Below, in pieces: positions 5,398-24,912 of a DNA stretch of 64,000 nt (positions are counted from its first letter, which is position 1; each line of letters starts with the position of its first letter). The DNA is taken from positions 64,001 to 128,000 of IMG/VR virus record IMGVR_UViG_3300017963_000201; one strand, 5' to 3'. The position numbers and the translations under genes are program-made. The stretch is from a virus. Under the pieces are notes generated by a model. It was given only the letters and a program-made list of their open reading frames with translations. It did not search any database and was not told the origin of the DNA.

Positions 5398-5478
5398 TAA
5401 TAAACTTTCTTTTAATGCCCGTCACAGATTTACATGTATTATACCCATACTACAACAAAAAGTTTACCTGAGGTACGT

Positions 5479-6792: not shown

Positions 6793-6803
6793 AGGAGACG
6801 GTC

Positions 6804-7196: not shown

Positions 7197-7197
7197 C

Positions 7198-8866: not shown

Positions 8867-9073
8867 TGTGCAAGAAGCATTGATGGTTATGTTAGTTGTA
8901 TTGGGTATAATCGGTTTGGTACTACTTAGTAGATCGATAATATATGGTAGACTGCTTTGCCAAGGAAAAATTAGTAGCTATAGTTACACAAAAGTAAAAA
9001 CAAGAGAAGCAACAAATTTTATCTATGGGATCATGTTTTTAATTGCATCCATATCCTTATTTATTGTCCTCCC

Positions 9074-9379
9074 ATGAAAAAAGAAGTTACTGATAAAGAC
9101 CTAGCGAAGATGTACAATTGGGGTGCTGCCCTTAGACTGTTACGTAAAATGACTGGATTAGGTCTTATAAAGTTCGGTTACGAAGTTGGTTATTTCAACG
9201 GACAAATATGCAATTGGGAAAACAATAAAATGTTACCCGATCTTAGAACGCTATATCGCTATTGTTTTGCCCTTAATGTCCCTTTATCGTTCATTGCCTA
9301 TCTAGCAGAGAATGAAAACGTAAGGGATCAAATTAATAAAGGACTCTCCTATTACAAGCGAGGATTCCATGTCGTATGA
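9074..9379 (+). CDS. XRE/Cro-like HTH protein
   Basis: GAALRLLRK...ICNWENNKMLPDLRTL...ALNV. Confidence 0.75.
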   Translation: MKKEVTDKDLAKMYNWGAALRLLRKMTGLGLIKFGYEVGYFNGQICNWENNKMLPDLRTLYRYCFALNVPLSFIAYLAENENVRDQINKGLSYYKRGFHVV

Positions 9380-9554
9380 TGACGAAACAGTAGAAATCGA
9401 AATAGTGAATAAAGTACATGAAACCGATCATGCTGTCTTGTTCAATATCGAAGGTGATGAATTTTGGATTCCCAAGTCAGTAATTGATGATATGGACGAA
9501 TGCATGGTTGTGGTGCAAAAATGGTTTGCAAAAAAGGAAGGATTTATCGAATGA
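9369..9554 (+). CDS. Small conserved phage protein
   Basis: HETDHAVL...WIPKSVI...WFAKKEG pattern common in phages. Confidence 0.6.
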   Translation: MSYDDETVEIEIVNKVHETDHAVLFNIEGDEFWIPKSVIDDMDECMVVVQKWFAKKEGFIE

Positions 9555-10096
9555 AAATTAGAAGTTTTCTATCGTATAGTTCCTATGTAATAAAGCACAA
9601 ATGGTATGTTTTTTTAGAGTGCTGTAAACGAGGTATACCTATTCGTGGGTTGCTTCATGATTGGCATAAATTTTTACCTGACGAGTTTATCCCCTATATG
9701 AACTACTTTGGTCCTAAAGGGATTCAAAGAGGTAGAAATAAAACTGGCTACTATAAGCCAAACGATACAGGGGATAGTGCTTTTGACCGAGCTTTTTTTC
9801 TACATCAAAAACGCGGAAGCCACCATTGGCAATACTGGGTGATGCCTCTTTCTAAAGAAGAAAACACAGAAGGTATGCGGATTTTTGAGATGCCACCTAA
9901 AGCGAGATTAGAAATGCTATGCGATTTTTACGGGGCAAGCCGTGCCCAAAAAAGTACAGGAACAGTGCGTGATTGGTATTTACAAAATGGTAGTAAGTTA
10001 GTTTTGCATCCAAATACTAGGCAATGGTTAGAAGATAAGCTAAACATTAATACGGGAGAAGAAAATGTGCGACCTATTCGTGTTCAAAAATCCTGA
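9551..10096 (+). CDS. HD-like protein (DUF5662-like)
   Basis: KHKWYV, LLHDWHKF, H...HHWQYW, EMLCD; start taken at ATG overlapping the upstream TGA. Confidence 0.65.
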   Translation: MKIRSFLSYSSYVIKHKWYVFLECCKRGIPIRGLLHDWHKFLPDEFIPYMNYFGPKGIQRGRNKTGYYKPNDTGDSAFDRAFFLHQKRGSHHWQYWVMPLSKEENTEGMRIFEMPPKARLEMLCDFYGASRAQKSTGTVRDWYLQNGSKLVLHPNTRQWLEDKLNINTGEENVRPIRVQKS

Positions 10097-10442
10097 CGGT
10101 ATGGTAGTATTTGCTGTAAGACTAGCAAATAATAAATTAATGACGGCAGCAGCTTGCTGCAATCCTCTTGATTTAAATACCCCAAAAAGGATAAGGACAA
10201 AACGAGCAATAGCTATCGCTACTAACAGACTGAAGAGATACCGTCTGGCTTTAATAATCCCACCACAGTTAGATCTTAATAAACCAATTTCTGAACAAAG
10301 AAAAATTGTTTGGGATTATCTAAGAGAGCATTTGTTAAGATATAAACAACATAATATGGGGTTACGAAGATATCAAGGAGATCCAGAAAAAAGCGAATTC
10401 CATAAATGGTTGGGGAAATTCGTAAAACACTATGAGAGGTAG
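10065..10442 (+). CDS. Hypothetical protein
   Basis: ORF with GGAG RBS in a tightly packed operon. Confidence 0.55.
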   Translation: MCDLFVFKNPDGMVVFAVRLANNKLMTAAACCNPLDLNTPKRIRTKRAIAIATNRLKRYRLALIIPPQLDLNKPISEQRKIVWDYLREHLLRYKQHNMGLRRYQGDPEKSEFHKWLGKFVKHYER

Positions 10443-10444
10443 GT

Positions 10445-11053
10445 ATGTTTATTGTCATCGAGGGTATTGACGGATCTGGAACGACTACACAAACAAAGCT
10501 ATTAGCAAGTTACATCAATAAGCAAAAAGGTCAAGTAGCGATTGAAACAAAAGAGCCCACAGAACAAACTGTTGGAAGATTAATCAGAGAGATCCTAAGA
10601 AACAAATGGATTAAGATTAATGAATTGAGTATGGCCTTATTGTTTGCTGCAGATCGACTGGATCATATGGAACGTATGGAGCAACATTTGGATAGAGGAC
10701 TGCATATCGTATGTGATCGCTACCTCCATTCTTCTTTATGCTATCAGGGAACCCAGGAAACTTTAGACTTTGTTGCAGCAATAAACGCAAAAGCAAAAAT
10801 ACCTGACGTGACGTATATTTTAGAAATTGATCCAAAGATAGCCCATGAAAGAATCCTCTCTCGGGGCGAACAAGAACAACGATATGATGCTATAGAAAAG
10901 CAAAAACAAATAGCAGACAACTACGATAAAGTATTAAGATCTATGTTTGATGCTAATAAGTTAGTATATCTTCAAGGGGACCGCCCAAAAGATCAGGTAC
11001 ACAAGGACATAGTAAATGATTTTAATAAAAGGATAGGTAATGGTAAAGTTTAG
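10445..11053 (+). CDS. tmk: Thymidylate kinase
   Basis: FIVIEGIDGSGTTTQ P-loop, KEPT, LLFAADR, CDRYLHSSLCYQG. Confidence 0.93.
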   Translation: MFIVIEGIDGSGTTTQTKLLASYINKQKGQVAIETKEPTEQTVGRLIREILRNKWIKINELSMALLFAADRLDHMERMEQHLDRGLHIVCDRYLHSSLCYQGTQETLDFVAAINAKAKIPDVTYILEIDPKIAHERILSRGEQEQRYDAIEKQKQIADNYDKVLRSMFDANKLVYLQGDRPKDQVHKDIVNDFNKRIGNGKV

Positions 11054-11372
11054 AAAACCGATACCAACAATTGAAAAAGAATTCAATATAGAAGAGCATG
11101 TACCCCCAAGGGAAGAGATACCCAAAGAGTTTAAGACATTTATAGGCCAAAGAAACAAATGGGTAGTTGCCGCTGAGGATTGGTTCTATTTTGGGCTATC
11201 CAAGGACAGTCTTAAACCTAAAGATGGTATTGATCTAAATGCCGCACTTATACATCTACAACGATTACTCCACTCTTTTAGTCTAGAGCACAACCACAAA
11301 ATAGCTGCGGCATCTTACCTAATGTCTTTGTGGTTTCAGGAATATACCCCGAGCAAAAGAGATATACCCTAG
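11040..11372 (+). CDS. Conserved hypothetical phage protein
   Basis: 110 aa; WFYFGL...HNHKIAAASYLMSLWF. Confidence 0.55.
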   Translation: MVKFRKPIPTIEKEFNIEEHVPPREEIPKEFKTFIGQRNKWVVAAEDWFYFGLSKDSLKPKDGIDLNAALIHLQRLLHSFSLEHNHKIAAASYLMSLWFQEYTPSKRDIP

Positions 11373-11463
11373 TGCGGGGTACTGTGTCAAGCCAATTCTT
11401 AATGTTTAGGAAAGTGCCTAGAACCTAAATCTTTTTCCTTGAAAAAATTAATCTTTTTATTGC

Positions 11464-11491
11464 TTGACGTACCCAAAAACTTTTGTATTAT
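11464..11491 (+). promoter_or_regulatory. Sigma70-type promoter for the ncRNA cluster
   Basis: TTGACG-N16-TATTAT with AT-rich upstream sequence. Confidence 0.7.
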
Positions 11492-11519
11492 ACACTAAGC
11501 AGCACAAAGAATGATAAGG

Positions 11520-11532
11520 GATCTTTGACAAT
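11520..11532 (+). promoter_or_regulatory. boxA-like antitermination element
   Basis: GATCTTTGACAAT about 25 nt after the predicted start, resembling rrn boxA. Confidence 0.5.
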
Positions 11533-11543
11533 CGGTTGTGGTT

Positions 11544-11600
11544 TTCCCTCTGGGATCTTTAACTCTTTTCGCTTGGACGTTTTAGTCATGCCAGAGGGAA
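11544..11600 (+). ncRNA. Hairpin cassette H1 (10-bp stem, 37-nt loop)
   Basis: TTCCCTCTGG ... CCAGAGGGAA. Confidence 0.5.
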
Positions 11601-11657
11601 TTAATGTGCCCTTGTTCCGGTAACGCTAGGCACGGGACCCTAACAAGGGTAGCCTTT

Positions 11658-11794
11658 GGGCAAATGCTGTATGGCACTCCATAGCTTATATAAGTTCGAA
11701 TCTTATTATACCCTTCGGGGTATATAGCCTAACTGGTAAGGCAGCTTCTTATAAAGAAGCCAAGCGAAAATGTGCCACACAATACTTGTTGCCC
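11658..11794 (+). ncRNA. Y-RNA-like element Y1 with permuted tRNA (anticodon loop UUAUAAA)
   Basis: GGGCAA-ATGC-TGTATGGCAC / GTGCCACACA-ATACTTG-TTGCCC stem encloses T arm (ATAAG TTCGAAT CTTAT), acceptor stem closed by UUCG, D arm and anticodon arm. Confidence 0.8.
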
Positions 11795-11809
11795 TTTATT
11801 AGTCAGATT

Positions 11810-11883
11810 TCTTGCTGAATGCAGTTTATGATTACATTTTTGTGTAAAAAAATCAGATCACAAACTAATCCTTGTCAGCAAGA
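11810..11883 (+). ncRNA. Minimal Y-RNA-like element Y3 (no tRNA domain)
   Basis: TCTTGCTGA-ATGC-AGTTTATGAT ... ATCACAAACT-AATCCTTG-TCAGCAAGA; same internal loop as Y1, Y2, Y4. Confidence 0.72.
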
Positions 11884-11892
11884 TTAATCCTT

Positions 11893-12123
11893 GGGGATCT
11901 AAATGCGCGTCAGGATTACATTGCACTTAACTGTTAATTAAGAGGTTGTTGGTTCGAGTCCAACCTGGCCCATCTCCGCTAGTGGGGGTAGGAATCCATG
12001 TCATAGGTTTACAGTCCCTCCCGTATGCTTGTGGCTTCCGCTCTTTTCTTACCCTCACTTTTATGGGCCAGTAGCTCAATTGGTAGAGATAATATGGTCT
12101 TGGCAAATACTTGTTAGATTCCC
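11893..12123 (+). ncRNA. Y-RNA-like element Y2 with permuted tRNA (GUU anticodon) and nested hairpin
   Basis: GGGGATCTAA-ATGC ... AAATACTTG-TTAGATTCCC; anticodon arm 11926-11942, T arm 11948-11964, acceptor strands 11965-11971 and 12065-12071, D arm 12074-12088. Confidence 0.82.
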
Positions 12124-12135
12124 TTTTTATTATAA

Positions 12136-12210
12136 AATAACTGCATAAGAACGTACACTAACTTAATAAAAATTTTCGATGCACGCCTGCTCTACTCTTA
12201 TGCAGTTATT
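12136..12210 (+). ncRNA. Hairpin cassette H3 (15-bp stem, 45-nt loop)
   Basis: AATAACTGCATAAGA ... TCTTATGCAGTTATT perfect inverted repeat. Confidence 0.55.
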
Positions 12211-12217
12211 ATTTTTT

Positions 12218-12274
12218 GGGGCATTCAGTTTTGTTTAAATATTTGGGGCAATAAAAATATTTCCTGAGTGCCTC
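12218..12274 (+). ncRNA. Hairpin cassette H4
   Basis: GGGGCATTCAG ... CTGAGTGCCTC; the GU pairs favour the + strand. Confidence 0.45.
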
Positions 12275-12288
12275 TCTTAATTGTACTA

Positions 12289-12363
12289 AGAAATCGACGT
12301 TGACCATCCTTACCCCGCATCCCTACCTCAGCTTTCTAGACTTCCCTGGCAACGTCGATTTCT
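12289..12363 (+). ncRNA. Hairpin cassette H5 (14-bp stem, 47-nt C/U-rich loop)
   Basis: AGAAATCGACGTTG ... CAACGTCGATTTCT. Confidence 0.55.
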
Positions 12364-12530
12364 AATTTTGGAGCGTCCGAAGCGTGACTGGATCATTTAA
12401 CATCCAAAAAATCAGCACTAGTTTTTACTTTGGAGTCTAGTATGCCTTCTGTGGATAACGTCTTTAATTTGATTATGGCTTTATTTGCTTCCTGGATTAT
12501 AGTAGTATTTATAGCATCGCACTTTGGCAA

Positions 12531-12603
12531 GGGGCACTAGCCTAACGGATAAGGCATCGGCCTTCTAAGCCGACCAATCGGGGTTCGATTCCTCGGTGTC
12601 CCG
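12531..12603 (+). tRNA. tRNA-Arg(UCU)
   Basis: Full cloverleaf GGGGCAC/GTGTCCC, anticodon arm TCGGC CTTCTAA GCCGA, T loop TTCGATT; CCA not encoded. Confidence 0.93.
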
Positions 12604-12614
12604 TAGGAGATGCT

Positions 12615-12800
12615 ATGAATGATAAGGAAATCGTTGCGGAGCTAAGAAGAATTGGATCTGATGTTTTGAATAAACTTTGGAAAGCTCACCATGATTATCA
12701 TTTCAAAACCATAGATGCCCAAGAGTTTATCAAAATATTTAAACAAGCTGTAGCTAAGTTTAATGAAGCAAATACTATCATAGAAAGAGAAAGACATTAG
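12615..12800 (+). CDS. Small hypothetical protein within tRNA cluster
   Basis: AGGAG RBS, 61 aa, fills the gap between two tRNAs. Confidence 0.55.
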   Translation: MNDKEIVAELRRIGSDVLNKLWKAHHDYHFKTIDAQEFIKIFKQAVAKFNEANTIIERERH

Positions 12801-12883
12801 GCTGCTGTGACGGAATGGTATACGTATCAGACTTAAAATCTGATGCCCAGATGGGATTGAGGGTTCGAGTCCCCCCAGCAGCA
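12801..12883 (+). tRNA. tRNA-Leu(UAA)
   Basis: GCTGCTG/CAGCAGC acceptor, TCAGA CTTAAAA TCTGA, long variable arm, discriminator A. Confidence 0.92.
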
Positions 12884-12886
12884 TAC

Positions 12887-12970
12887 GGATCGGTGCCCGA
12901 GCTGGTCAAAGGGGACGGGCTGTAAACCCGTTGTCATGTGGCTACGATGGTTCGAATCCATCCCGATCCA
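12887..12970 (+). tRNA. tRNA-Tyr(GUA)
   Basis: GGATCGG/CCGATCC acceptor, ACGGG CTGTAAA CCCGT, long (bacterial-type) variable arm. Confidence 0.93.
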
Positions 12971-12980
12971 TATATAAGTC

Positions 12981-13118
12981 TTACTCCGAATGCAGTAAGA
13001 GATTACATTGCTCTTCGAAAGCCGTGGTTGCGGGTTCAAGTCCCGCTCCCCCGATTTCGGGGGATAGCTCAATTGGTAGAGCACGTAAAATAATCTCTTG
13101 CAACCCTTGTCGGAGTAA
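12981..13118 (+). ncRNA. Y-RNA-like element Y4 with permuted tRNA (UCG anticodon)
   Basis: TTACTCCGA-ATGC-A-GTAAGAGATTA ... TAATCTCTTGC-AACCCTTG-TCGGAGTAA encloses anticodon loop, T arm, acceptor stem closed by ATTT, and D arm. Confidence 0.85.
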
Positions 13119-13133
13119 ATTTTTGGAGGTTTT

Positions 13134-13718
13134 ATGAATACGCATATTGAGTACGAACGAAAGTTTTTGATTGGGAAGAGCGATTGGATGCACTATGTCT
13201 CTAAGACAGTTTACATAGTTCAAGGCTACCTGTCTTTTGATATCCCTAGTGTTCGTATTCGAAAACAATGCTCCGTAAATCAATGTGATAATTTATTTTG
13301 CAATCAATGCACCTTTGGGGATAAATTTACAATTCAACTATCGTACAATATAACAATTAAAGGTACTAAAAACAAAGAAGACCTAGCATGTAGGGATGAA
13401 TTTAACATACCTGTTAGCCCCACTATTGGAGATCATATTCTTCGCCAAGTAAAAAAAGATTTTATAGTTAAACAAAGACACTTTGTCAAATACGATGATA
13501 TCATTTGGACCATTGACGAGTTTAAGAGAGATAACCAAGATCTTATAGTAGCAGAGGTTGAGAATAGTAATAACTTACCAAAAGATGAATTTAATAAATC
13601 GGTAAATACTCATATGCCAACATGGGTACTAGAAGAAGTAACACAAGATCCAGATTATTTAAACGTAAATTTAGCTAGGCATCCCTATAACACATGGGAC
13701 TTAAACAAAAACAAATAA
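13134..13718 (+). CDS. CYTH-domain (triphosphate tunnel metalloenzyme) protein
   Basis: EYERKFL, QGYL, VRIR, WTIDEF, LIVAEVE, EVTQDPDYLNVNLA. Confidence 0.9.
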   Translation: MNTHIEYERKFLIGKSDWMHYVSKTVYIVQGYLSFDIPSVRIRKQCSVNQCDNLFCNQCTFGDKFTIQLSYNITIKGTKNKEDLACRDEFNIPVSPTIGDHILRQVKKDFIVKQRHFVKYDDIIWTIDEFKRDNQDLIVAEVENSNNLPKDEFNKSVNTHMPTWVLEEVTQDPDYLNVNLARHPYNTWDLNKNK

Positions 13719-13908
13719 CCGCAACCGATAAATTTATTAATGAGCTACAAAAATTAATAGGATCTAGAATTACTCAAATCGATCTTTGGTACAAAGATGG
13801 TATTATAAGAATGGAGTTCAGAGATAGAGAAGGCATCCAGGTAGACATTAAAAAAGGGCTAATAGAAATTTTTAAGGAAGATAAGTTAATACAAATAAAA
13901 ATATTTTA

Positions 13909-13971
13909 GGCAGCGGTAGTGTACTAATCTTTCCCAAAACAGTGTCAAATGTGTCCATGCCTATCGCTGCC
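13909..13971 (+). ncRNA. Hairpin cassette H6 immediately upstream of the Ro60 RBS
   Basis: GGCAGCGGTAG ... CTATCGCTGCC, 41-nt loop. Confidence 0.45.
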
Positions 13972-13999
13972 ATTGTCCTCACAGAAAGGGGAATGCATT

Positions 14000-15553
14000 A
14001 TGAATAAACAAGTCTTCAAAACGACTAGAGGGAAAATACCCGAAAGGGCTAATACCTACAATAAGGCAGGAGGTAAAGCTTATACGAGATCCCCAGAGGC
14101 ATCTTTAGTACAGATGGCTTTGACAGGAACTTTCTATAATACGTTCTATTGCTCCGGTAGAGCACAACTGAACGAAACGATAGATTTGTGCAAAAAGGTA
14201 GATCCTAGATTCGTAGCACAGACAGCTATCTACGCAAGAAGCAAAGGGCTCATGAAAGATATGCCTATGTTTCTTTGTGCTCATTTAGCAAAAGAAGATC
14301 CTAAACTTTTGGAGCTGATCTTTCCACAGGTAATGAGCAATGGGATAGTCCTCAAGAAGTTTGTACACATGCTTAGGTCTGGGGTTGTCGGGCGTAAAAG
14401 TATGGGGACCACGATCAAAAGAGCTGTTACTAATTGGATCCAGAATCGATCTTACCATGGGTTGTTCCGAGACGCTATCGGTGGGGATGTCACGATTGCA
14501 GACATAATAAAAATGGTTCACCCCAGACCTCAAGATAAATCAAGAGAAGCGTTCTATGCTTATTTGATCGGTAAGAAATATAATCATGAATCACTGCCTA
14601 CTATTGTAAAAGAATATGAGGCTTTCAAAAAAGGAGAAACCAAAGAAGTACCCAATGTAGAGTTTCGTTACTTAACTTCTCTGAAACTGGGTAAAACCGA
14701 ATGGACCCAAATTGCCTTGAACGCCCCTTGGCATATGTGTCGAATGAACTTGAATACCTTTGATCGCCATGGGGTATTCAAGGATAAAAAAGTGACAAAA
14801 AGAATTGCCGACAAAATCAGGGACCGCGAATCAATAAGAAAGGTTGGCGTATTCCCCTACCAACTTTTGGCAGCATACAAAGCAGAGAAGGATTTGCCAC
14901 GAGAGATCATTGAGTCTCTGCACGATGCAATGGAAATCGCAACCAAGAATGTGCCCACTGTTGAAGGGAAAGTTGTATTGTGCCCGGACGTATCAGGTTC
15001 TATGCAAAGCTATAGCGTTACAGGGTCAAAAAATTCTAGTATAAAGCCGTTAGACGTTGCCGCTTTAGTTACAGCCGTGGTATTGAGAAATAACCCAGAC
15101 GCTTTGGTTTTACCCTTCGATACAGGATTACACAATATAAGACTCGAACCTAGAGATACGGTTATGACTAATGCAAACAAACTAGGGAGAATTTATGGTG
15201 GAGGTACCTCAGTAAGTGTACCCATGCGGTATCTTATAGACAAAAGGATCAAAGCCGATGTCATTATCTACATAAGCGACAACGAGTCTTGGGCAGATCC
15301 TTATCACCGAAGTACTGCTTTAGAAGGGTACTGGCAACAATTCAAATCAAAGAATAGAAACGCTAAACTTATTTGTATCGACACTTATGTAGAGAAAAAC
15401 GTACAGGCTAAAGATGCTCCAGATGTATTAAACATTGGTGGTTTTTCAGACAACGTTTTTACGCTAATAAATCTTTTTCTTAATGGAAGCATTGGTACTG
15501 AGGGTATCGTAAGCGAAGTCAAAAAAATTAACATGGGAGAGCGTGATGCCTAA
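14000..15553 (+). CDS. rsr: Ro60 / TROVE-vWA RNA-binding protein
   Basis: NKAGGKAY, TGTFYNTFY, AIYARSKGLMKDMP, RMNLNTFDRHGVF, FPYQLL, vWA MIDAS DVSGSM, GGGT, SDNESW, IGGFSD; start at ATG 14000 after AAAGGGG. Confidence 0.93.
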   Translation: MNKQVFKTTRGKIPERANTYNKAGGKAYTRSPEASLVQMALTGTFYNTFYCSGRAQLNETIDLCKKVDPRFVAQTAIYARSKGLMKDMPMFLCAHLAKEDPKLLELIFPQVMSNGIVLKKFVHMLRSGVVGRKSMGTTIKRAVTNWIQNRSYHGLFRDAIGGDVTIADIIKMVHPRPQDKSREAFYAYLIGKKYNHESLPTIVKEYEAFKKGETKEVPNVEFRYLTSLKLGKTEWTQIALNAPWHMCRMNLNTFDRHGVFKDKKVTKRIADKIRDRESIRKVGVFPYQLLAAYKAEKDLPREIIESLHDAMEIATKNVPTVEGKVVLCPDVSGSMQSYSVTGSKNSSIKPLDVAALVTAVVLRNNPDALVLPFDTGLHNIRLEPRDTVMTNANKLGRIYGGGTSVSVPMRYLIDKRIKADVIIYISDNESWADPYHRSTALEGYWQQFKSKNRNAKLICIDTYVEKNVQAKDAPDVLNIGGFSDNVFTLINLFLNGSIGTEGIVSEVKKINMGERDA

Positions 15554-16304
15554 ACTTCATGAATTATTGGCAGTAGAGTCAGATCTAAAAAATCAATTTG
15601 ATAAGATCTTGCAAGAGACTATTGTTACATTCACCAAAAAGCAAGATCATTTTATGGGCGTGCATAAGACTCTAAAAATGATCGATGATAATCGGGCTCA
15701 TGAGGAAGAAGCAGCTACTCAGTACAAAGAGCTTGATGATACCGTAGACGGTAAATTGGACTATACTTGGAAGTATGTTTCCAAGTATATTAATGCGATT
15801 CATCAGAAGGAAAGTACAAACCAAACTGCTAAAGCAGACCTGGTTGTGGAAGGTAAGGTTTTAGCCAAAGACCTTCCTGCCACTTTACTTTTGAGCATGG
15901 AATCGAAGCTAAAGTTTCTTCGTGGGGTCTACGAAAAGATACCCACGCTACAACCCGGAGTAAAGTGGGTACCAGATCCACAAAGAGGTAAAGGTGTGTT
16001 TCAGGCAGAGCCTCCAGAGATGACCCATAAAACGGAGAAGGATCTGAAATCGAAAACTCTGTTTGAGGGTAATAAAGAACACCCACCACAAATTGAAAAG
16101 TGGATGGAATCTTTCGTTGTGGGTACCTACACAAAAGATATGTGGTCTGGTATGTATTCTCCAGCCAAGAAGTCTGAGGTTTTGGGTAGATTGGATACCC
16201 TGATTCAAAGCATCAAAAAAGCCCGTATGCGTGCAAACGATACAGAGGTTTTGAAGACCGAAGTTAATCTTGCGGGTGCGTTGTATAGCTATTTGACAAA
16301 GTGA
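15546..16304 (+). CDS. Conserved uncharacterised protein overlapping the Ro60 3' end
   Basis: MPKLHELLAVE..., NQTAKADLVVEG...LPATLLL.MESKL, EHPPQIEKW, SGMYSPAKK...IKKARMRAN; I recall a similar uncharacterised bacterial/phage family (unverified). Confidence 0.75.
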   Translation: MPKLHELLAVESDLKNQFDKILQETIVTFTKKQDHFMGVHKTLKMIDDNRAHEEEAATQYKELDDTVDGKLDYTWKYVSKYINAIHQKESTNQTAKADLVVEGKVLAKDLPATLLLSMESKLKFLRGVYEKIPTLQPGVKWVPDPQRGKGVFQAEPPEMTHKTEKDLKSKTLFEGNKEHPPQIEKWMESFVVGTYTKDMWSGMYSPAKKSEVLGRLDTLIQSIKKARMRANDTEVLKTEVNLAGALYSYLTK

Positions 16305-16625
16305 ACAAGCTTTGGGCCAGCATCATAATTAGTCTCTGTTGTTAATTTTGTCCTTGGTGTTTTGCCCACAGCTTTAAACCTAAAGACGGATCAATTACTG
16401 GGCATGAATAAAAACCGCGTGCAGTGCGGGTTCAAGTCCCGTTCCGACCACCATATGGTCGGATAGTTCAATGGTAGAACGCATGCTTGATCAGATTCTA
16501 AATCGTGTGCCAGGAAAGATTCGGTACAGGGGGCTCGCTGGATGCCCTGTATCCCAGCACTTGGGTGGGATTGCTGTTGTGAAAAATGGTGATTTTTTAT
16601 AGCGGGCAATCCCATCTCTTTTTAT
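16305..16625 (+). ncRNA. Structured RNA containing a permuted tRNA-like module (16417-16486)
   Basis: GCGTG-CAGT-GCGGG TTCAAGT CCCGT-TCCGACC-ACCA-TAT-GGTCGGA-TA-GTTC AATGGTA GAAC-G-CATGC; outer boundaries approximate. Confidence 0.7.
16563..16624 (+). terminator. Long-hairpin intrinsic terminator
   Basis: GGGTGGGATTGC ... GCAATCCCATCT followed by T6. Confidence 0.65.
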
Positions 16626-17109
16626 TATGAAAAGTATAAATTTTACTATAGATATACCATACCGCTTATACCAACATTTTAATCTTAATTTTTACTTAAT
16701 TATAGGAAAGAATGAATTCCAGGTATCCCCCTTAAATTATTTTTGTCTCAATAATCCCCCCATAGAAAGCATGCGAAAGCTTATAGTTGATACACTGGTA
16801 TCCTATGACAAAGACAAAAAATAATTCTTTAGATGCGGACATGGGAGATCTTAGATTAAAGATTATACCGAATCCTTATTTAGAAAGTAGAACTATAGTA
16901 GTTTCTTTGGACGTATTTCGAGATCTCGGGTTTGCTTACCAGGAATTTAGGGATGAAAGAAACGATACTGGAAGAAAAAAAGACTGAGTATAAAAGATCT
17001 ATGACAGGATGCGTACCGATAGATCACGGAAAAACATATATTAAATTATATAGATCTTTATTTTGGTACCAACAAAAACATGCTTTATATGATGCCCTAC
17101 TAGAGTTAT

Positions 17110-17370
17110 GTGAAAATGATTAAGAATATCTTAGAAACTATATTTATCGTACTGAGCCTTGCTGCCGGGATAACGGGGTATGTTGGCTTCCTTATACTAG
17201 GTTTGTATTCTTTTTGGTGTACTTTAGAATATTTTAATAATCATGAAAGTATACTAGTTGGCATAATTGTCGGGGTATTCCCATTGGTACTAATATCTGC
17301 GCTAACCTTTATCTTTGGTCGATTATTTTTTGAATGGTGGCTCATAAAATATAGGAGGAGTCACCTATGA
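17110..17370 (+). CDS. Two-TM membrane protein
   Basis: Two hydrophobic stretches. Confidence 0.55.
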   Translation: MKMIKNILETIFIVLSLAAGITGYVGFLILGLYSFWCTLEYFNNHESILVGIIVGVFPLVLISALTFIFGRLFFEWWLIKYRRSHL

Positions 17371-17687
17371 TTGATTACGCTAAATTAAAAATGGATCTCG
17401 CCAAGGCTAAACAGAGAGCAAAAGACGCAGCAGATAAAGTGGAAGACACAGGGTCCTGCAACACGGATCACGTATTTATTCCTGTAGGATCGTGTAATAA
17501 GATCAAAAGAGGTAGCAAGAAATTATCAGAAATTTTCGGGGATGTCATTTTTCATAGTGGTTGGCACCATGGGTATTTTGCACCTATACCCACGTATGGC
17601 TTAGGATATAAAAATACTGTTGCTCAGGAAGCTGCAGCAAAGGCACTTCGAGAATATGGGGCATACGTATTTTACCAACTTGATTAA
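17367..17687 (+). CDS. Hypothetical phage protein
   Basis: AGGAGGAG RBS, ATGA overlap with upstream gene. Confidence 0.6.
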   Translation: MIDYAKLKMDLAKAKQRAKDAADKVEDTGSCNTDHVFIPVGSCNKIKRGSKKLSEIFGDVIFHSGWHHGYFAPIPTYGLGYKNTVAQEAAAKALREYGAYVFYQLD

Positions 17688-17892
17688 TGAAAAAAAGATT
17701 ATTAAAGGAATTAGAAAAACAAAGGTTTTGGAAAATAGCCAAGAAAGTAGGCTTTCTAAAACTAGACTATGAAGATCAGCATTTATTAATTTTCAAAATT
17801 TATCAGATTGCGGAAGAAATGAGTAGCAGGAAAATGGATACTACCCCAATGATCGGTGAGCTAGTATCTAAATACCTTATCGAGGACTAATT

Positions 17893-18213
17893 ATGGGATT
17901 TGGAGATCAAAAGTTAATAGAAGAACAAAAAAGATTAGCCAAAATAGAAAAAGCAGAAAAAGAACATAAGCCCGTATTATATAAAGTTGTGGGTGAGAGG
18001 CAAGTGTCGGTCAAGACAGAATTAACTATTAAAGCCAGATCGGAAGAGGAAGCTGAAGATTTGTTTTTCAAAGAAATTAAAAACTACGATTTAAATCAAT
18101 TTGATTATTGCCCTGGAAATGAGGACATCGAAATTGAATCGATTGAAGCTTTACAAGCCATAGAAGAACCAGATGATAAAACGCTAAATCTTTTTAATAC
18201 AAAATCCTCATGA
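17893..18213 (+). CDS. Hypothetical protein
   Basis: GAGGA RBS; IKARSEEEAEDL motif common in small phage proteins. Confidence 0.55.
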   Translation: MGFGDQKLIEEQKRLAKIEKAEKEHKPVLYKVVGERQVSVKTELTIKARSEEEAEDLFFKEIKNYDLNQFDYCPGNEDIEIESIEALQAIEEPDDKTLNLFNTKSS

Positions 18214-18794
18214 TATTTTTTACGGCTGATACGCACTTTAACCATACAAATATTTTAAAGTTATGTATGCGTCCTTATTACTGTATCAAGGAAATGAACG
18301 AGGATATAATTGAAAGGTGGAATACCACAGTAACAACAAATGATATTGTTTTTCATTTGGGTGACTTTAGCTTTTCAGACCCAAGACCCTTTTTAGCTCG
18401 ATTAAATGGGCAAATTATTATTATAAAAGGTAACCACGACAACAGATCTGTACGTAAAAAGTTTAATATATATTCACACCAAATGCGCATGAGGATTGGC
18501 AACTTTTTTTGTTTATTAAATCACCGACCCCTATACTCAGGGACTAATAAAGATCACCACGATCCAAAAGAAGAAATAGCTTATCCAGCAAGATACGATT
18601 TTATAATTTCCGGCCACGTTCACGAGAAATGGCTCTGGACGGGCCGATCTTTAAATGTAGGGGTTGATCAACACGAATTTACGCCTCTGAGTTACCCCCT
18701 TGTCCTAAACTTACTTTATGCTCGTAAAGAGCACCTTATGACTAAACATGCTACATCGTGGGATAAAATTAAACAAAAAAACTTAGACGAATAG
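18210..18794 (+). CDS. Calcineurin-like metallophosphoesterase
   Basis: DTHFNH, HLGDF, GNHD, H-P, GHVH, NVGVD. Confidence 0.92.
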   Translation: MIFFTADTHFNHTNILKLCMRPYYCIKEMNEDIIERWNTTVTTNDIVFHLGDFSFSDPRPFLARLNGQIIIIKGNHDNRSVRKKFNIYSHQMRMRIGNFFCLLNHRPLYSGTNKDHHDPKEEIAYPARYDFIISGHVHEKWLWTGRSLNVGVDQHEFTPLSYPLVLNLLYARKEHLMTKHATSWDKIKQKNLDE

Positions 18795-18939
18795 TTGGTT
18801 CATTCAACCAACTTACCTACCTAAACTAAGCAAACTTTACCTACTAAAATTTTCCAAAATTGCAAAATTTATATAGGATTTTCGTGTAGGTTTTATGCCT
18901 ACTTCTTTATAATTCGAATACTTATACGTAATACAATTG

Positions 18940-18955
18940 TGGCACGCTATTTGCT
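18940..18955 (+). promoter_or_regulatory. Sigma54 (-24/-12) promoter
   Basis: TGGCACG-CTAT-TTGCT, exact consensus and spacing, in an intergenic region. Confidence 0.65.
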
Positions 18956-19061
18956 AATTATATAAATTGTAATGGCTACCGGACTCAAAAAAATAGGGCT
19001 AGTGGTTATGGTCGCCCTGGCCATCTGCAAAACCGAGCCCGGTGGCTATCGAAAAAATACC

Positions 19062-19091
19062 TTGACAAACGTAACACGTTTGTGTTACGTT
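19062..19091 (+). promoter_or_regulatory. Sigma70 promoter with overlapping 10-bp inverted repeat (operator-like)
   Basis: TTGACA-N18-TACGTT; AACGTAACAC-GTTT-GTGTTACGTT spans the spacer and -10. Confidence 0.6.
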
Positions 19092-19113
19092 AGACGGTAG
19101 AAAGGGAATTTCC

Positions 19114-21099
19114 ATGAAAATCCATTACAGCGCACAACAAAAATTATACTATGCGGAAGCGACGAAGGAAGAGCGCTTCCCACTAAAAGAAGCGGGGTTC
19201 TGGTTCCACGGGCCAGAATACCGTTGCAGCTTCTCTGGGTGCAAATGCTGTGCCATCAAACTAGAGTGGGTTTGGTGGACCACCAAACCTGAAATCGCAG
19301 CCAGACTCCTGGAAGTCTGTGACGATGACGCAAAATGTGCCCTCACGGGGCACGTCGAGAGCGTGGAGGCTTCCCGAGCCTCCGACGCTGAGATAGATAT
19401 TCCCTGCCCCGAAAATCTCGCTTACCGCCCCTTCCAGCGGGCCGGTGTAGCCTACGCAGCCGAGCGTAGCGCTACAATGATCGCCGACGAAATGGGGCTT
19501 GGAAAAACAATACAAGCCCTGGGGATTGCCAACTATAAAAAAGCAAAAAACATCTTAATTGTTTGCCCCGCGTCTCTACGATTAAATTGGAAGCGGGAGG
19601 CCCAGAAATGGCTCGTAGAGCCACACACGATCCAAGTTGTCACCAAGCCATCGGACGACGTGAGCGCTGCTGATATCGTAATCATTAATTATGACCGCTG
19701 TAAAGGTCAGCACCTTGAAGCGCTGAAAGCCAGAGAGTGGGATCTTATAGTAGTGGACGAGGTTCACTATTGCAAAAACCCGAAAGCCCAGCGGACCAAG
19801 AATATCCTGGGCTATTGGGATCGCAAAAACCGTACAGCGGTCCCCGGCCTGGTAGACCGAGCGAAAATTAAACTTTTTCTCACGGGCACCCCGATCACAA
19901 ACCGCCCCATTGAGCTGCACCCACTGGCCGCAAAACTCGATCTCCGAGAGTTTGGAAATTTTATGCGCTTCGCCAAACGCTACTGTGACGCCCACGAGAC
20001 CAGATACGGATGGGACTTTTCGGGCGCGAGTCATCTAGACGAACTCCAAGCCAAACTTCGCGGAAGTTTTATGGTTCGCAGGCTAAAGAAAGACGTGCTC
20101 AAAGAGCTTCCGGCAAAAGTCAGACAGGTTGTCATTTTGAACCAAAATGGGTGCGCAAACGCGGTAAAAGCCGAACAAAAGGCATGGGCGCAAGCCGGGG
20201 GAGCGGACTTTGAAGCACTAAAAGCTAACGTGGAGCTTGCCGCTGCCAGTGAAGATCAAAATGCTTACAGGTCTGCAGTACATGCCCTTAATTCAGCAAT
20301 CCGGGTCGCTTTTGAAGATATGGCCGAAATTCGACATGAAACAGCAGAAAAGAAAACCCCAGCAGTGCTTGAACACTGCGATGACATACTTGAAAATGTC
20401 AGCAAGCTGGTGATTTTTGCACACCACAAAAAAGTAATTGCAGGGATCAAAGAGCATTATGGCGAAAAAGCAGTAGTCGTGGATGGATCAACTCCTAATG
20501 ATGCCCGGCAAGCAGCTGTAGACGCATTTCAAAACGATCCTAGCATTAAAGTTTTCATCGGATCGATCAAGGCTGCTGGTGTTGGCCTAACACTGACCGC
20601 AGCCTCCCACGTTGTTTTTGCCGAGCTGGATTGGACACCAGCAAACATGACGCAAGCGGAAGATCGTTGCCACCGGATCGGGCAAACCGATTCCGTCACT
20701 GTCCAGCACTTGGTTGTCAATGGCAGCCTTGACGCCAGGATGGCTGAAATCCTCGTGTGGAAACAGGAAATTATTGAAGCTGCGCTGGATAATCCTGAGA
20801 AGGCCATAGAGGTTCCTGAGCCCACCGAACTCCCCAAACCCAAATATCCCAAAGCGACTGATGAGCAGCGCAAGGCTTGCACCGATGCCCTCCGAATGCT
20901 TGCAGGACTGTGTGATGGGGCACTTAAAATAGATGGGCATGGATTCAATAAATGCGATAGTACAATTGGAAAAAGTTTAGCTTCGCGCTCTATGGATCGT
21001 GAGCTAACGGACGGCGAAGTGTTCTTGGCCAAACGAATCCTGCCAAAATACCACAGGCAGGTCGGTAGCGATCTCATTGAAAAGGTAAAAGCGGCATGA
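19114..21099 (+). CDS. SNF2/SMARCAL1-like SF2 helicase
   Basis: IADEMGLGKT, VCPAS, DEVH, LTGTP, RRLK, FAHH, GVGLTL, QAEDRCHRIGQ. Confidence 0.93.
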   Translation: MKIHYSAQQKLYYAEATKEERFPLKEAGFWFHGPEYRCSFSGCKCCAIKLEWVWWTTKPEIAARLLEVCDDDAKCALTGHVESVEASRASDAEIDIPCPENLAYRPFQRAGVAYAAERSATMIADEMGLGKTIQALGIANYKKAKNILIVCPASLRLNWKREAQKWLVEPHTIQVVTKPSDDVSAADIVIINYDRCKGQHLEALKAREWDLIVVDEVHYCKNPKAQRTKNILGYWDRKNRTAVPGLVDRAKIKLFLTGTPITNRPIELHPLAAKLDLREFGNFMRFAKRYCDAHETRYGWDFSGASHLDELQAKLRGSFMVRRLKKDVLKELPAKVRQVVILNQNGCANAVKAEQKAWAQAGGADFEALKANVELAAASEDQNAYRSAVHALNSAIRVAFEDMAEIRHETAEKKTPAVLEHCDDILENVSKLVIFAHHKKVIAGIKEHYGEKAVVVDGSTPNDARQAAVDAFQNDPSIKVFIGSIKAAGVGLTLTAASHVVFAELDWTPANMTQAEDRCHRIGQTDSVTVQHLVVNGSLDARMAEILVWKQEIIEAALDNPEKAIEVPEPTELPKPKYPKATDEQRKACTDALRMLAGLCDGALKIDGHGFNKCDSTIGKSLASRSMDRELTDGEVFLAKRILPKYHRQVGSDLIEKVKAA

Positions 21100-21847
21100 G
21101 TCACTACATATGGTCATGCGGGCATAAGACTGCTAAGTCTTACAAAACCTATCCGATGTGCCCTGTTTGCGCAGTAGAGCAAGGCAAATATGCGGCTATG
21201 ATTGCTCAGATTGAGGCGATAAGAGATCAAGAGAATGAGCGAAACAGAAGAGAAGGGATTGCTTGGTCCAAAATTTTCAACCGGCAAGGTTGCCCTTACT
21301 GTGGGGGAATCACATGAAAGCTCAAGTTACTTTTCACTTTGACATGGAAGACATTATATCGATATGTATTCATTGCTATCGGTACACCGGAGTTAGCTTA
21401 ATCAAAAGTAAAAAACATATACTTAAAACAGTCCGTAACCATTTTGAAAACTACGGCTACTGTTTGCTACAGACGGAAGTACCGTCTTGGGATAAACGCC
21501 TAGATCTAACTATGGAAGAAAAATTGTTCGCAGCATGGTGCAAAGAACAAAAGTGGGGAAACTAGGCCATGTCTAGATTCCATTGTTATCACGATTGGGC
21601 TAGCGAGCCCGCTTTGCTTACTCATACAAAAAATGGCTATTGAATACGAGAAAAATAATGCAAGATAAAAACCAAATACAAGTACGTGCTTGCCAATGTA
21701 TCCGTTGTGGGCATCTTTGGGTTGCGAGAGTTATACTATCAAGCAATACAACCAACCTATCAGGGGAAGCTACAAAGTGGTGCCCTTCTTGCGGATCAAA
21801 AGCGGGATACTGTGGCCCAATACAGATATTAAAATTTGAGGAAAACC

Positions 21848-22003
21848 ATGAAAACAATCTGCGCACAATGCGGAAAAATACTTACTGATGAGTTTGGGAA
21901 TCGTTTACATTCTGCTAATTTTGATTCAGAAATACCACACCCAACTAAGTACTTTACGTATGCATGGTGTAATATATGTGCAGCAAAACGCAAAAAATGG
22001 TGA
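21848..22003 (+). CDS. Small zinc-finger protein (51 aa, not in ORF track)
   Basis: GAGG RBS; MKTICAQCGK...WCNICAAKRKKW. Confidence 0.5.
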   Translation: MKTICAQCGKILTDEFGNRLHSANFDSEIPHPTKYFTYAWCNICAAKRKKW

Positions 22004-22232
22004 AAAGAAACGGTATGTACGTATATATTTTAGAGATCACAACAGAAAAGCTAAATGGTATTGGGCTATAAAGATTAAGAATAAAAAATATATAAGATGC
22101 AAAAAAGATGGTGATGATTTTTCTTACATGAGAAAATGTGGTACTGAAATAGAGAAATTGTATATTATGTTTGGAGAGCCGGAAAAAGAGATCCCGTTTA
22201 GGGTATATAGAATATTTTAAACGAGGTAGGAG

Positions 22233-22922
22233 ATGTGGAGTTACTACGGTAGCAAAAAAAAAAAGATTGCAAAACTTTACCCTTTTCCCAAATACGAATT
22301 AATTATAGAACCGTTTGCAGGTGCAGCTTGGTATAGTGTTTTGCACCGAGATAAAAATATATTGCTTAACGAAAAGTATATTGTAATATATAATATTTGG
22401 AATTGGTTAATAAACAGAGCAAGTTCTAAATTGATTTTGGAAAATGCAGACTTCTATAACGGCCAAGATATTAGCTAAATTGATTTGGAAAAACCGCATA
22501 AAGACTTGATAGGTTTTTGTATCAATAGAGGTAGCATAGCACCTAAAAATATTGTTCAAAAATGGAGTTGCCAAGTAGCATCTAAGCCCAATTGGGCAAG
22601 CACAACTAACTTTTTTTTAAAGAGAGTAGCAAAACTATTGCCTTAAATTAAGCACTGGAAAACACAATTTGGCGATTACAAAAAACTACCTAATGTTAAG
22701 GCAACTTGGTTCATTGACCCGCCTTATCAGTTTGGGGGCGAACACTACGCAATCAATGATATTAACTATCATGAACTTAGTGACTGGTGCAAAACACGAA
22801 AGGGGCAAGTAATTGTCTGTGAAAATAATAAGTCTGATTGGCTGCCATTTGTAGCTTTAACAGGAATTACAGGACAGCGTTGTAACACAACAGAATCGGT
22901 TTGGATAAATGAAAATCTATAA
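22233..22922 (+). pseudogene. Dam-like DNA adenine methyltransferase with two in-frame TAA stops
   Basis: YYGSK, IEPFAGAA, WFIDPPY all in one frame; TAA at 22476-22478 and 22644-22646. Confidence 0.85.
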
Positions 22923-23207
22923 GATTTAGTTATGAAACAGGGAATGCGTCAAATATACAATGGGTTTACTCGAGGTACTGGTGGATTAAAGTGCTATTGT
23001 TGCGGTGCCCGCTATAGAGCTATGAAAGCTATAAGAGCAAAAAACAAAATAAAAAATAAGCAAATTACCCGCGAAGCAAACTCTAATGGGTTACACACCC
23101 GATAACCACTCTTTGTATTGGGTTTATGGGTGTGGTGATAAGAATAGGGCTTTTACTGAGCTAGATCCCTACCTAAGTTTCATAAGATAACTGGTATTAT
23201 ACACTTT

Positions 23208-23639
23208 ATGAAATCTATTACAAGCTTCCGTGGTGAATACGCTTTTCTAAGTAATTTCTATCCAGCATCAGTCCCCTTTCGGGGTATCATCTTCCCTACC
23301 GCCGAGCATGCTTATCAAGCGCAAAAGTCAAAAAGCCTAGAAGACCAAAAAAGGATAGCACAAGTCAAAACTCCCGGAGAAGCTAAAAGACTAGGTAGAT
23401 TTCTTAATCTTTATTCCGGATGGGATCAGATACGTATCCCCATCATGTTTGCAATTATTTACCGCAAATTTACTCACAACAAATATTTAGGTAAAAAGTT
23501 AGTAGCGACTAACCCAAAGATACTTATTGAAGAGAATACCTGGGGCGATAAATACTGGGGAAAAGTAAACGGAGATGGGCTTAATCTATTAGGATCACAG
23601 CTAATGCAGGTACGTTGGCTTCTCATAGAAAAAGGTTGA
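23208..23639 (+). CDS. NADAR family protein
   Basis: FLSNFY, TAEHAYQAQK, EAKRLGR, KF, LIEENTWGDKYWG, NLLGSQLMQVR. Confidence 0.92.
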   Translation: MKSITSFRGEYAFLSNFYPASVPFRGIIFPTAEHAYQAQKSKSLEDQKRIAQVKTPGEAKRLGRFLNLYSGWDQIRIPIMFAIIYRKFTHNKYLGKKLVATNPKILIEENTWGDKYWGKVNGDGLNLLGSQLMQVRWLLIEKG

Positions 23640-24041
23640 CACACTCAAGTACTATTATTAATATAGGTACTAGAGAGTCGATTCAGCTTGGTATCCTGGT
23701 TCGATGTCTAAGTTGGCAGACTCTCTTGCTCCTAAGCTAAATGCTTAGGAGTTTTTATTTGACAGGATTAGCCTAATACAGTATATTACCTTTTGGGTGT
23801 TAGAAGTGGCCTTGGATTGATGATCGCTCCCGGAATTATCCGGGAGCACTTTTTTATTGACACGTATTACTATTTTGATAAGTTAGCTAACGAACGTGAT
23901 CTCCGGAATAACCCCCTTCAATTACCGCTACGATTGAAGGGGGGTTTTCCTTGACACTGTGAATTAATTAAGATATAAGAAAAATACTGCGTATCCGTCT
24001 GGCCCCTCAGACTTTGGCAAGAGTTTGGGGGGTACTTTTTT
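23636..24041 (+). ncRNA. Four tandem promoter-small RNA-terminator units
   Basis: TTGACA at 23636, 23759, 23857, 23951, each with a -10-like hexamer 16-17 nt later and ending in a GC hairpin plus T run. Confidence 0.72.
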
Positions 24042-24912
24042 AATCACTTCTAGCAGAAGAAAAGAATCTGGACCAGAATCCTGCAGGTAGTGCGGAGTAG
24101 ATTCTCCCGGCCCCCATATAGCCCCCAGGGCCAACCTGATGCAAAACAGTACCCTTGGTCCTATATTGTTGTTTGAAGCCCACAGAAGCCTTTGTAAAGC
24201 GGTTCAGGATGGCGCTAATCATCCCAGACAACTTTCCGTAGTGATCAATGACTAGACTATTCCCACCCAAAGCATAATTGAAATCAGTATCGATAGAAAA
24301 GATTCCCTGAGATTCCAAAGCTGCTATAGTAGCAGCATCGATTAAAATTGTACCGTATTGAGCAAATGGGTAGTTGTCTACGGTCAAACTCGTATAAGGT
24401 GGAATTGCATTTATGAATTGAACACCGCGATCTAGGTAAAAGATTAAATGTTTATCATCATATCCATAGAAAAGCTGAATGTCGGGGTCGGTAGAAGCCC
24501 GATCCATGTTTTCGATATAATCACTGATTGACTTTCTTGCCTTATCTACTTGGACTCTGAGTTGAGCCGCGTATGCATAATACTTGGTAGAAACGGATTT
24601 TACAAAAACGTTATTACTGACAGTGACGTTTTCTAATATGCATCTCGTAGCCAGTAAATACTCTTCGTTATAGGTAGAAGCATCAAAGGAATATTGATAT
24701 ATCCCTGTACCCGCGTGAGTAATACTAGTCCCGCCAGATGCCGTAAATGATCCTGAATCTTCCGATGAATCATCTGATATGTTAATCAAATTAAAAGAAC
24801 TAGTGCCTGCTACATCTGTTAGGGAGTTTGTCAACGTATCCCGAACATAGAAAGTAATGGGCTCGGTTTGGTTAGCCAACACTACATGAAAATCGGTAAA
24901 TGATTGGCTCAT
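24040..24912 (-). CDS. Putative head-tail adaptor / neck protein
   Basis: Downstream of capsid genes; Ig-like N-terminus (HAGTGIYQYSF) and helical C-terminus. Confidence 0.5.
   Translation of the reverse strand: MSQSFTDFHVVLANQTEPITFYVRDTLTNSLTDVAGTSSFNLINISDDSSEDSGSFTASGGTSITHAGTGIYQYSFDASTYNEEYLLATRCILENVTVSNNVFVKSVSTKYYAYAAQLRVQVDKARKSISDYIENMDRASTDPDIQLFYGYDDKHLIFYLDRGVQFINAIPPYTSLTVDNYPFAQYGTILIDAATIAALESQGIFSIDTDFNYALGGNSLVIDHYGKLSGMISAILNRFTKASVGFKQQYRTKGTVLHQVGPGGYMGAGRIYSALPAGFWSRFFSSARSD

Follow-up and report, generated by a model that had tools for sequence, protein, structure and literature searches.

Four stacked promoter-terminator units at a convergent gene junction of an uncultured myovirus-like phage as candidate small RNA genes

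What purpose is served by four near-consensus promoters that follow one another on the same strand of a phage genome, each of them closed by a terminator within 90 nt and none of them followed by a gene? The question is raised by a gap of about 400 nt in an uncultured, myovirus-like phage of about 145 kb. The stretch of DNA analysed here, referred to as the window, has a length of 64,000 nt and comprises bases 64001-128000 of the 144,959-bp IMG/VR virus record IMGVR_UViG_3300017963_000201, which is estimated to be 79% complete; coordinates are those of the window unless another contig is named. The gap is the place where an early-type gene block on the + strand and the virion gene block on the - strand meet tail to tail. 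The rightward block, which extends from about 5400 to 23639, is non-structural and encodes, among others, a UDP-glucose dehydrogenase, an RlaP-type RNA-repair nucleotidyltransferase, a thymidylate kinase, tRNAs, a Ro60/TROVE-vWA protein, a DUF7873 protein, an SNF2 helicase and a NADAR protein. From 24040 upward, the - strand carries genes for a tail-sheath-like protein, the major head protein and the portal. The last rightward gene encodes the NADAR-domain protein of 143 aa (23208..23639, +; Pfam PF08719, E = 9.7e-26; phrog_1017), and its TGA stop codon falls inside the first TTGACA of the block. The convergent gene (24040..24912, -), taken from the ORF list, encodes a protein of 290 aa with a weak match to a head-tail connector family (phrog_17327, E = 4e-4). 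It is the last gene of the virion block in the window haplotype, in which the major head protein and the portal are encoded farther away on the - strand, and the terminator scan found no - strand intrinsic terminator after it.

Two features of the wider genome were recorded alongside. The + strand holds an RNA-centred gene set consisting of the RlaP-type nucleotidyltransferase (7198-8385), the tRNAs (11907-12970), the Ro60/TROVE-vWA protein (13949-15553) and DUF7873 (15543-16304); the tRNAs number three (Arg-TCT, Leu-TAA and Tyr-GTA), in addition to a weak tRNA-like match at 11907-11972 (35 bits). Elsewhere, a GC-rich island (G000:C1:32187-35692, L102) with 52-58% GC as opposed to 38% carries an ORF of 677 aa that is 68-72% identical to ORFs in metagenome-assembled genomes (MAGs) labelled Deltaproteobacteria or Myxococcales, which as a similarity of sequence is a possible but weak clue toward a host in these groups.

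The first-pass annotation had described the gap as four back-to-back mini transcription units, with a perfect TTGACA followed after 17, 17, 16 and 17 nt by TAATAT, TATATT, TAAGTT and TATAAG, and with a GC-rich hairpin and T run at the end of each unit that runs straight into the next -35 box. All of these elements were found as claimed when the sequence was read again, and the closing hairpins were confirmed by the terminator scan. Promoter 1 (23636..23664, +) consists of TTGACA at 23636-41 and TAATAT at 23659-64 and agrees with the consensus at 10 of 12 positions. The RNA predicted from it has about 86 nt (23672..23757, +) and is composed of a long imperfect hairpin of 55 nt (23672-23726), whose first base is the predicted +1, and, directly after it, the terminator hairpin (23728-23752) with its T run. 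The long hairpin, noted earlier as an extra feature of this unit, is borne out by the predicted fold of RNA 1, which has an energy of -41.1 kcal/mol (z = -6.5 against shuffles) and is paired from the 5' end onwards. Promoter 2 (23759..23787, +; TTGACA 23759-64, TATATT 23782-87) agrees with the consensus at 11 of 12 positions and is the best promoter match in the 20 kb scanned; the predicted RNA 2 of about 61 nt (23795..23855, +) has a weakly structured 5' part of about 31 nt, a terminator at 23826-23847 (9 bp, seven of them G-C) and six T. Promoter 3 (23857..23884, +; TTGACA 23857-62, TAAGTT 23879-84) has the weakest -10 box and precedes a predicted RNA 3 of about 59 nt (23891..23949, +) with a single-stranded 5' part of about 21 nt, a terminator at 23912-23943 (12 bp) and TTTT. 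Promoter 4 (23951..23979, +; TTGACA 23951-56, TATAAG 23974-79), whose -10 box is likewise weaker than those of the first two units, precedes a predicted RNA 4 of about 56 nt (23986..24041, +) with a 5' part of about 16 nt, a terminator at 24002-24033 (14 bp) and a run of six T, which extends up to the stop codon of the 290-aa gene on the opposite strand. The starts of all four RNAs were inferred by setting the +1 about 7-8 nt after each -10 box. The folds of RNAs 2-4 reach z = -2.4 to -3.4, which is mostly owed to their terminators.

The units are not repeats of one another, and only the hexamers and short chance matches are common to all of them. No direct-repeat family longer than 20 nt was found among them, the longest shared strings having 12-20 nt at 75-83% identity. 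The motif TGATC..CCGGAAT, which had been reported as common to units 2 and 3, does correspond to a 12-nt match of 83% identity, but this is not above chance. The statement that the block contains no ORFs holds in the sense that none of them is credible; mechanical ORFs of 34-56 aa are present, which run across the predicted terminators and promoters, show no Shine-Dalgarno sequence ahead of them by eye and have no match among the PHROG families at E <= 1. No gene was found downstream of any of the four promoters. Since even promoter 4 transcribes only 56 nt before the convergent stop codon is reached, none of the promoters can serve a protein gene, and the product of the block must therefore be the RNAs or the act of transcription itself.

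The arrangement was also compared with what the rest of the genome contains. TTGACA occurs 69 times on both strands of the 144,959 bp, in 14 cases with a usable -10 box, and three of these 14 lie in the block. For four TTGACA of one strand to fall within 321 nt, the expected number of clusters in the genome is 0.005, with the -10 boxes and terminators not yet counted. A scan of the 145-kb genome for the architecture, defined as a promoter and a terminator within 160 nt, recovered units 1, 2 and 4 only, unit 3 being below the -10 threshold. As such a cluster is expected so rarely and the genome holds no other unit of promoter plus terminator, the pattern is not due to chance. The promoters of the block are the best sigma-70-type matches on this strand. 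Its four hairpin/T-run sites are, moreover, the top four terminators in 5000-24900, and in the remainder of these approximately 20 kb promoter-like and terminator-like sites occur at the frequency of shuffled sequence. Outside the block, sigma-70-like promoters and canonical intrinsic terminators are thus no commoner than in shuffled sequence (5000-24900 and the whole genome), so that there is no independent support for the phage relying on such promoters. The promoters were scored against a sigma-70-type consensus, and the host may use a different promoter type. No clear phage-specific promoter motif was found upstream of the operons.

Relatives were sought via both flanking proteins, via DNA patterns and in the metagenome collection. 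In the collections searched, a single other haplotype was found, which is about 98% identical and is represented by five contigs from four samples. Samples in which the phage is present are JGI 3300018080 and 3300017991, ENA ERZ27256773 and SRA SRR6963352. Over the 406 nt of the block, the two haplotypes are separated by five mutational events. In the stem of RNA 1, a G>T exchange at 23677 disrupts one pair. Terminator 1 is affected twice, by a G>T exchange at its foot (23728) and by the inversion of its loop at 23737-23743 (CTAAATG as opposed to CATTTTAG in the contig L061), the stem that carries this loop being unchanged. The other two events are A>G exchanges, one at 23820 in the 5' segment of RNA 2 and one at 24022 in terminator 4, where a U-A pair becomes U.G, so that the pair is kept. 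The loop inversion is probably a hairpin-loop flip by template switching. All four promoters, including their spacers, and the whole of RNA 3 are identical in the second haplotype, and the fold of RNA 1 is kept with one internal mismatch. In the two flanking genes, 39 of 1298 positions differ, 28 of them at third codon positions. Five events in 406 nt compared with 28 changes at 433 third codon positions corresponds to p = 6e-5 in a Fisher test. At the third-position rate, about nine changes would be expected in the 139 nt of the promoters, where none occurred, and about eight in the 124 nt of the RNA 5' parts, where there were two (p = 0.013). The low rate of change fits purifying selection on the whole block, in a comparison of two near-identical sequences. 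Identity between the haplotypes ranges from 96.8 to 99.1% among neighbouring segments of this mosaic region, and the small number of changes in the block could in part be due to recent recombination instead of selection.

The mosaic character of the region is visible on both sides of the block. In L061:3860-4320, which corresponds to window 24041-24066, unit 4 is separated from the 290-aa gene by an additional - strand ORF of 134 aa without a Pfam or PHROG match. A direct repeat of 26 nt, AATCACTTCTAGCAGAAGAAAAGAA, lies on both sides of this ORF, as a result of which the last eight codons of both genes are identical; the presence or absence of this ORF is an indel by recombination at the repeat, adjoining the block. 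Upstream of the NADAR gene, the haplotypes are mosaic over 21762-23129, and the segment from about 22192 to 22912 cannot be aligned to L061, so that small genes have been swapped there.

In our preferred reading, to which we give about an even chance on the signals and conservation described, the block holds four small RNA genes, each transcribed on its own, and the series of their terminators at the same time closes the rightward gene block. Four short non-coding RNAs are most likely made from the block, as far as predicted promoters and terminators allow a judgement. The host RNA polymerase with its primary sigma factor would transcribe each unit from its near-consensus promoter, and each of the four RNAs (about 86, 61, 59 and 56 nt) would be ended by its own intrinsic terminator. 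Each would consist of a unit-specific 5' part, i.e., the 55-nt hairpin in RNA 1 and 16-31 mostly open nucleotides in RNAs 2-4, and, at its 3' end, of a stable hairpin that carries a U tail. This is the usual build of trans-acting small RNAs in bacteria and phages, in which the seed lies upstream of a terminator that also guards the 3' end and can bind chaperones. What is characteristic of base-pairing small RNAs, namely an own promoter, a non-coding body and an intrinsic terminator with a U tail, is predicted for all units. The most likely action of the RNAs would be to pair with or bind host RNAs or proteins soon after infection. A secondary effect of the arrangement would be that the four serial terminators close the rightward block and keep its transcription from running antisense into the virion genes. 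This reading is the simplest, given the separate body of each unit, the conservation of these bodies and the strong fold of RNA 1; counted against it are the broken stem pair at 23677, the lack of a target in the phage and the lack of an Rfam family. The earlier proposal of a battery of early small RNAs fits in its promoter-to-terminator anatomy, its lack of coding capacity and its conservation between two haplotypes, whereas two of the roles suggested with it, a type III antitoxin and a polymerase sink, are unsupported.

The searches for families, relatives and targets bear on these roles. No Rfam family matched the block at its gathering score, and at E <= 10 the region 23400-24300 gave chance matches only; the candidates ctRNA_pT181, PyrR, P9 and ncS54 were rejected, as all of them score far under their cut-offs. 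A tRNA or tRNA-like identity was likewise rejected, with neither ARAGORN nor Rfam RF00005 finding a cloverleaf in the block. Because the phage encodes Ro60, its partners Y RNA and YrlA, in which the paired 5' and 3' ends form a Ro-binding stem, were considered as well. They were rejected, as none of their Rfam models matches, either at gathering score in the window or at E <= 10 in 23400-24300, and as the distance between the block and the Ro60 gene is 8 kb; a single AAUGC string is present, in the terminator loop that is inverted in the second haplotype. A blastn search of deposited phage genomes with the block gave no match, and when it was searched against five related contigs only the 98% haplotype was found. 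In L002-L008, relatives detected via the 290-aa protein at 55-62% identity, the junction is absent and the operon continues past this point; the 136-kb relative G002 has no comparable unit, the equivalent junction probably being located at the contig ends. The search via NADAR covered 46 viral loci and 153 proteins; the next protein in rank has no more than 53% identity, and no battery is adjacent to any of them. A 17-mer from the loop of RNA 1 gave 59 matches in metagenome contigs, of which two are the known haplotype and the others stop at the 17-mer and look like chance. Against the five MAGs that hold the closest relatives of the 677-aa ORF, the block gave chance-level matches only.

For antisense regulators acting on phage genes, no target in the phage rises above the background of shuffled seeds: blastn-short with each unit found only chance matches of 9-15 nt in the phage genome, and the duplex energies of the four 5' parts with 228 phage translation-start regions never beat those of shuffled seeds. 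ToxI-like type III antitoxin RNAs are tandem direct repeats of one unit of roughly 36 nt that adjoin a toxin gene. The units of the block share no such repeat, and the scanned neighbours, the NADAR protein and the 290-aa gene with its connector match, include no toxin gene, which speaks against this suggestion.

The alternative that we take most seriously assigns the function to the junction itself. It takes the units as terminator-promoter cassettes of the PeSL type that were stacked between the rightward block and the virion operon and yield short RNAs as by-products; the terminators would stop rightward transcription, and the strong head-on promoters with their bound polymerases, or the antisense RNAs released from them, would block or trim read-through from the virion operon. 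This appears possible though on the unlikely side. It is a serious rival because the layout provides a four-fold stop and opposes a virion operon whose read-through is unterminated, with the block placed exactly at the convergent junction. PeSL (promoter-early stem-loop) cassettes are known from the T4-type phages RB49 and phi1 (Arbiol et al., 2010; PMC2839356). Like the block, they join a strong promoter of the sigma-70 type to a stable stem-loop at which transcription from upstream is terminated, signals that are here read from the sequence, and the hairpin and T run of the block adjoin the next -35 box in the same way as in these cassettes (PMC2839356). Also common to both are an A/T-rich region upstream of the promoter, an intergenic position and variable gene content nearby, and the stem-loops of the PeSLs were proposed to hold early transcription out of the late virion genes (PMC2839356). 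Gene content beside the block differs between the haplotypes as well, by the indel of the 134-aa ORF with its repeat and by the unalignable upstream stretches, and the promoters are the most conserved part of the block. However, PeSLs are a repeated family of about 50 copies per genome that stand before ORFs and end in a Shine-Dalgarno sequence and a start codon, as opposed to four units in 145 kb, none of which precedes a gene or has anything in common with the others beyond the hexamers, and no scattered copy was found in the genome. Recombination between cassettes would leave one of them, not four with unique bodies of 16-55 nt, and the RNA bodies, too, have changed less than third codon positions. 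The first-pass annotation had named, as the outcome that would speak against small RNAs, hairpins that serve only as terminators of the flanking convergent genes. This may apply in part: all hairpins are oriented on the + strand and can therefore end the rightward block, but not the convergent - strand operon, and the promoters drive no gene.

The remaining explanations concern the RNAs or the DNA in other roles. Anti-defence decoys, i.e., RNAs that would mimic a host CRISPR repeat, an antitoxin RNA or a tRNA arm and thereby disarm a defence system, would suit a phage so rich in RNA biology, in which 12 kb of the + strand hold the genes for the Ro60/TROVE-vWA protein, the RlaP-type nucleotidyltransferase and three or four tRNAs, and the strong host-type promoters of the block are in keeping with very early expression; short D-loop-like and T-loop-like strings can be seen by eye in RNA 1. 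We nevertheless consider this quite unlikely, given that neither a tRNA, a Y RNA nor any other Rfam family matches even at E <= 10, that the units share no repeat and that they have no similarity to the five MAGs with the closest relatives of the host-derived phage gene. The hairpins are followed by T runs and are therefore read as terminators, and the terminator loop of RNA 1, being inverted in the second haplotype, is not constrained. The idea of crRNA mimics in particular finds no support, since the hairpins are not repeated and have the character of terminators; as regards RNA anti-CRISPRs, which are solitary repeat units close in sequence to the CRISPR repeat of the host, the comparison with the five MAGs gave chance-level matches. 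Both T4 and T7 have origins that depend on promoters, and the cumulative GC skew peaks at the block, where the gene orientation also changes; the short transcripts of the block could prime or activate an origin, or its hairpins act on single-stranded DNA. This seems highly improbable, since the gene orientation explains the skew switch, every transcript is terminated within 90 nt, and neither iterons or direct repeats nor, by eye, an AT-rich unwinding stretch beside the block are present. Near-consensus promoters with no gene to drive would finally be in accordance with a sink for host RNA polymerase, for which no evidence was found, or, more generally, with a neutral remnant without function. 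With four sites per genome, no more than a negligible part of the cellular polymerase could be bound, a sink needs neither a terminator nor a unique body in each unit, and the conservation of the block exceeds that of third codon positions, which leaves very little probability for either.

The architecture was also sought in 2.9 million viral contigs by two pattern scans, in which perfect -35 boxes had to follow T runs at the pitch seen in the block; most matches were tandem repeats, those of the first scan mainly tandem direct repeats or iteron-like arrays without promoter-terminator units. True batteries were found in three unrelated contigs, with three units in L084 (IMGVR_UViG_3300045988_107305), three in L278 (IMGVR_UViG_3300021256_000075) and four in L314 (IMGVR_UViG_3300037400_003678). 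Like the block, they are made up of consecutive units with a near-consensus promoter, a non-coding body of 50-80 nt and a hairpin/T run that abuts the next -35 box, at a pitch of about 90-100 nt, and their existence is a point in favour of the small RNA reading. They differ from it in that no common sequence exists, the -10 boxes are of an extended type typical of other hosts, and the contexts vary. The battery of L084 is located at a convergent junction as in this phage, in agreement with a boundary function; that of L278 lies antisense between two opposite-strand genes, and that of L314 is found upstream of a co-directional gene, so that the context is not uniform, which argues against such a function. 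Searches of deposited phage genomes gave no match for L084 or L314. It is conceivable, though we consider it improbable, that tandem batteries of unrelated, strongly promoted RNAs of 55-90 nt are a recurrent and undescribed phage device, with independent instances in this phage and in L084, L278 and L314; such a device would use a first-minute burst of host polymerase to mark a gene-block boundary and at the same time deliver several RNA effectors, regulators or decoys, against the host.

Other arrangements came to light in further unrelated phage contigs. L306:10700-11934 contains two promoter-terminator units followed by an array that looks like the CRISPR type, with spacers and a 36-nt repeat starting with GTTTGAGAGAAGTG. 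Two or three tandem homologous units of 99 nt are present in L094:1300-1760 (-) and L073:7650-8100 (-), each with TTGACA, an extended -10 box and a conserved AT-rich hairpin (…AAATGATTGAA…TCATTTGA…), and the last unit drives a gene; unlike the battery of this phage, these arrays are a repeated leader or operator module. In L312:4300-4800 (-), a promoter-terminator mini-unit stands directly before the promoter that drives a tRNA gene cluster.

Among known systems, the OOP RNA of lambda and the sar RNA of P22 are single mini-genes with their own promoter, an RNA of 60-80 nt and an intrinsic terminator, located at the 3' end of a convergent gene, and they overlap this neighbouring gene and act antisense on it. 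The block differs from both by its four units and by ending exactly at the convergent stop codon without overlap. The early promoters A1-A3 of phage T7 are likewise strong, of host type and arranged in tandem on one strand at distances of about 100-125 bp; they drive the early operon with no terminators between them, whereas every promoter of the block is shut off within 90 nt. A phage-borne counterpart is the Pas family of prophage-encoded, Hfq-dependent small RNAs of pathogenic E. coli, in which PasB has a proposed seed in a single-stranded stretch just upstream of the 3' terminator hairpin and U tract (bioRxiv 10.64898/2026.05.13.724894). The Pas RNAs have no sequence relation to the block, the copies of pasA and pasD reportedly lie far apart and did not arise by tandem duplication, and they are backed by northern blots and RIL-seq targets, compared with the predicted RNAs described here (cited in 10.64898/2026.05.13.724894). 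The ncRNA candidates of six Pseudomonas phages derive mostly from untranslated regions (10.1101/2023.10.13.562163). Free-standing small RNA genes in virulent phages appear to be rare in the phage transcriptome literature examined, in which no battery of four unrelated small RNA genes was found described.

The block is thus a real and unusual variant of two things known from phages, small RNA genes and terminator-promoter cassettes. Even if its units were only boundary elements, it would be a compact natural example of stacked insulators. If the RNAs are made, terminator-promoter cassettes would have a second use beside the gene shuffling of the PeSL type, and there would be four defined candidates for the way in which a large uncultured phage with Ro60, RNA repair and its own tRNAs acts on its host.
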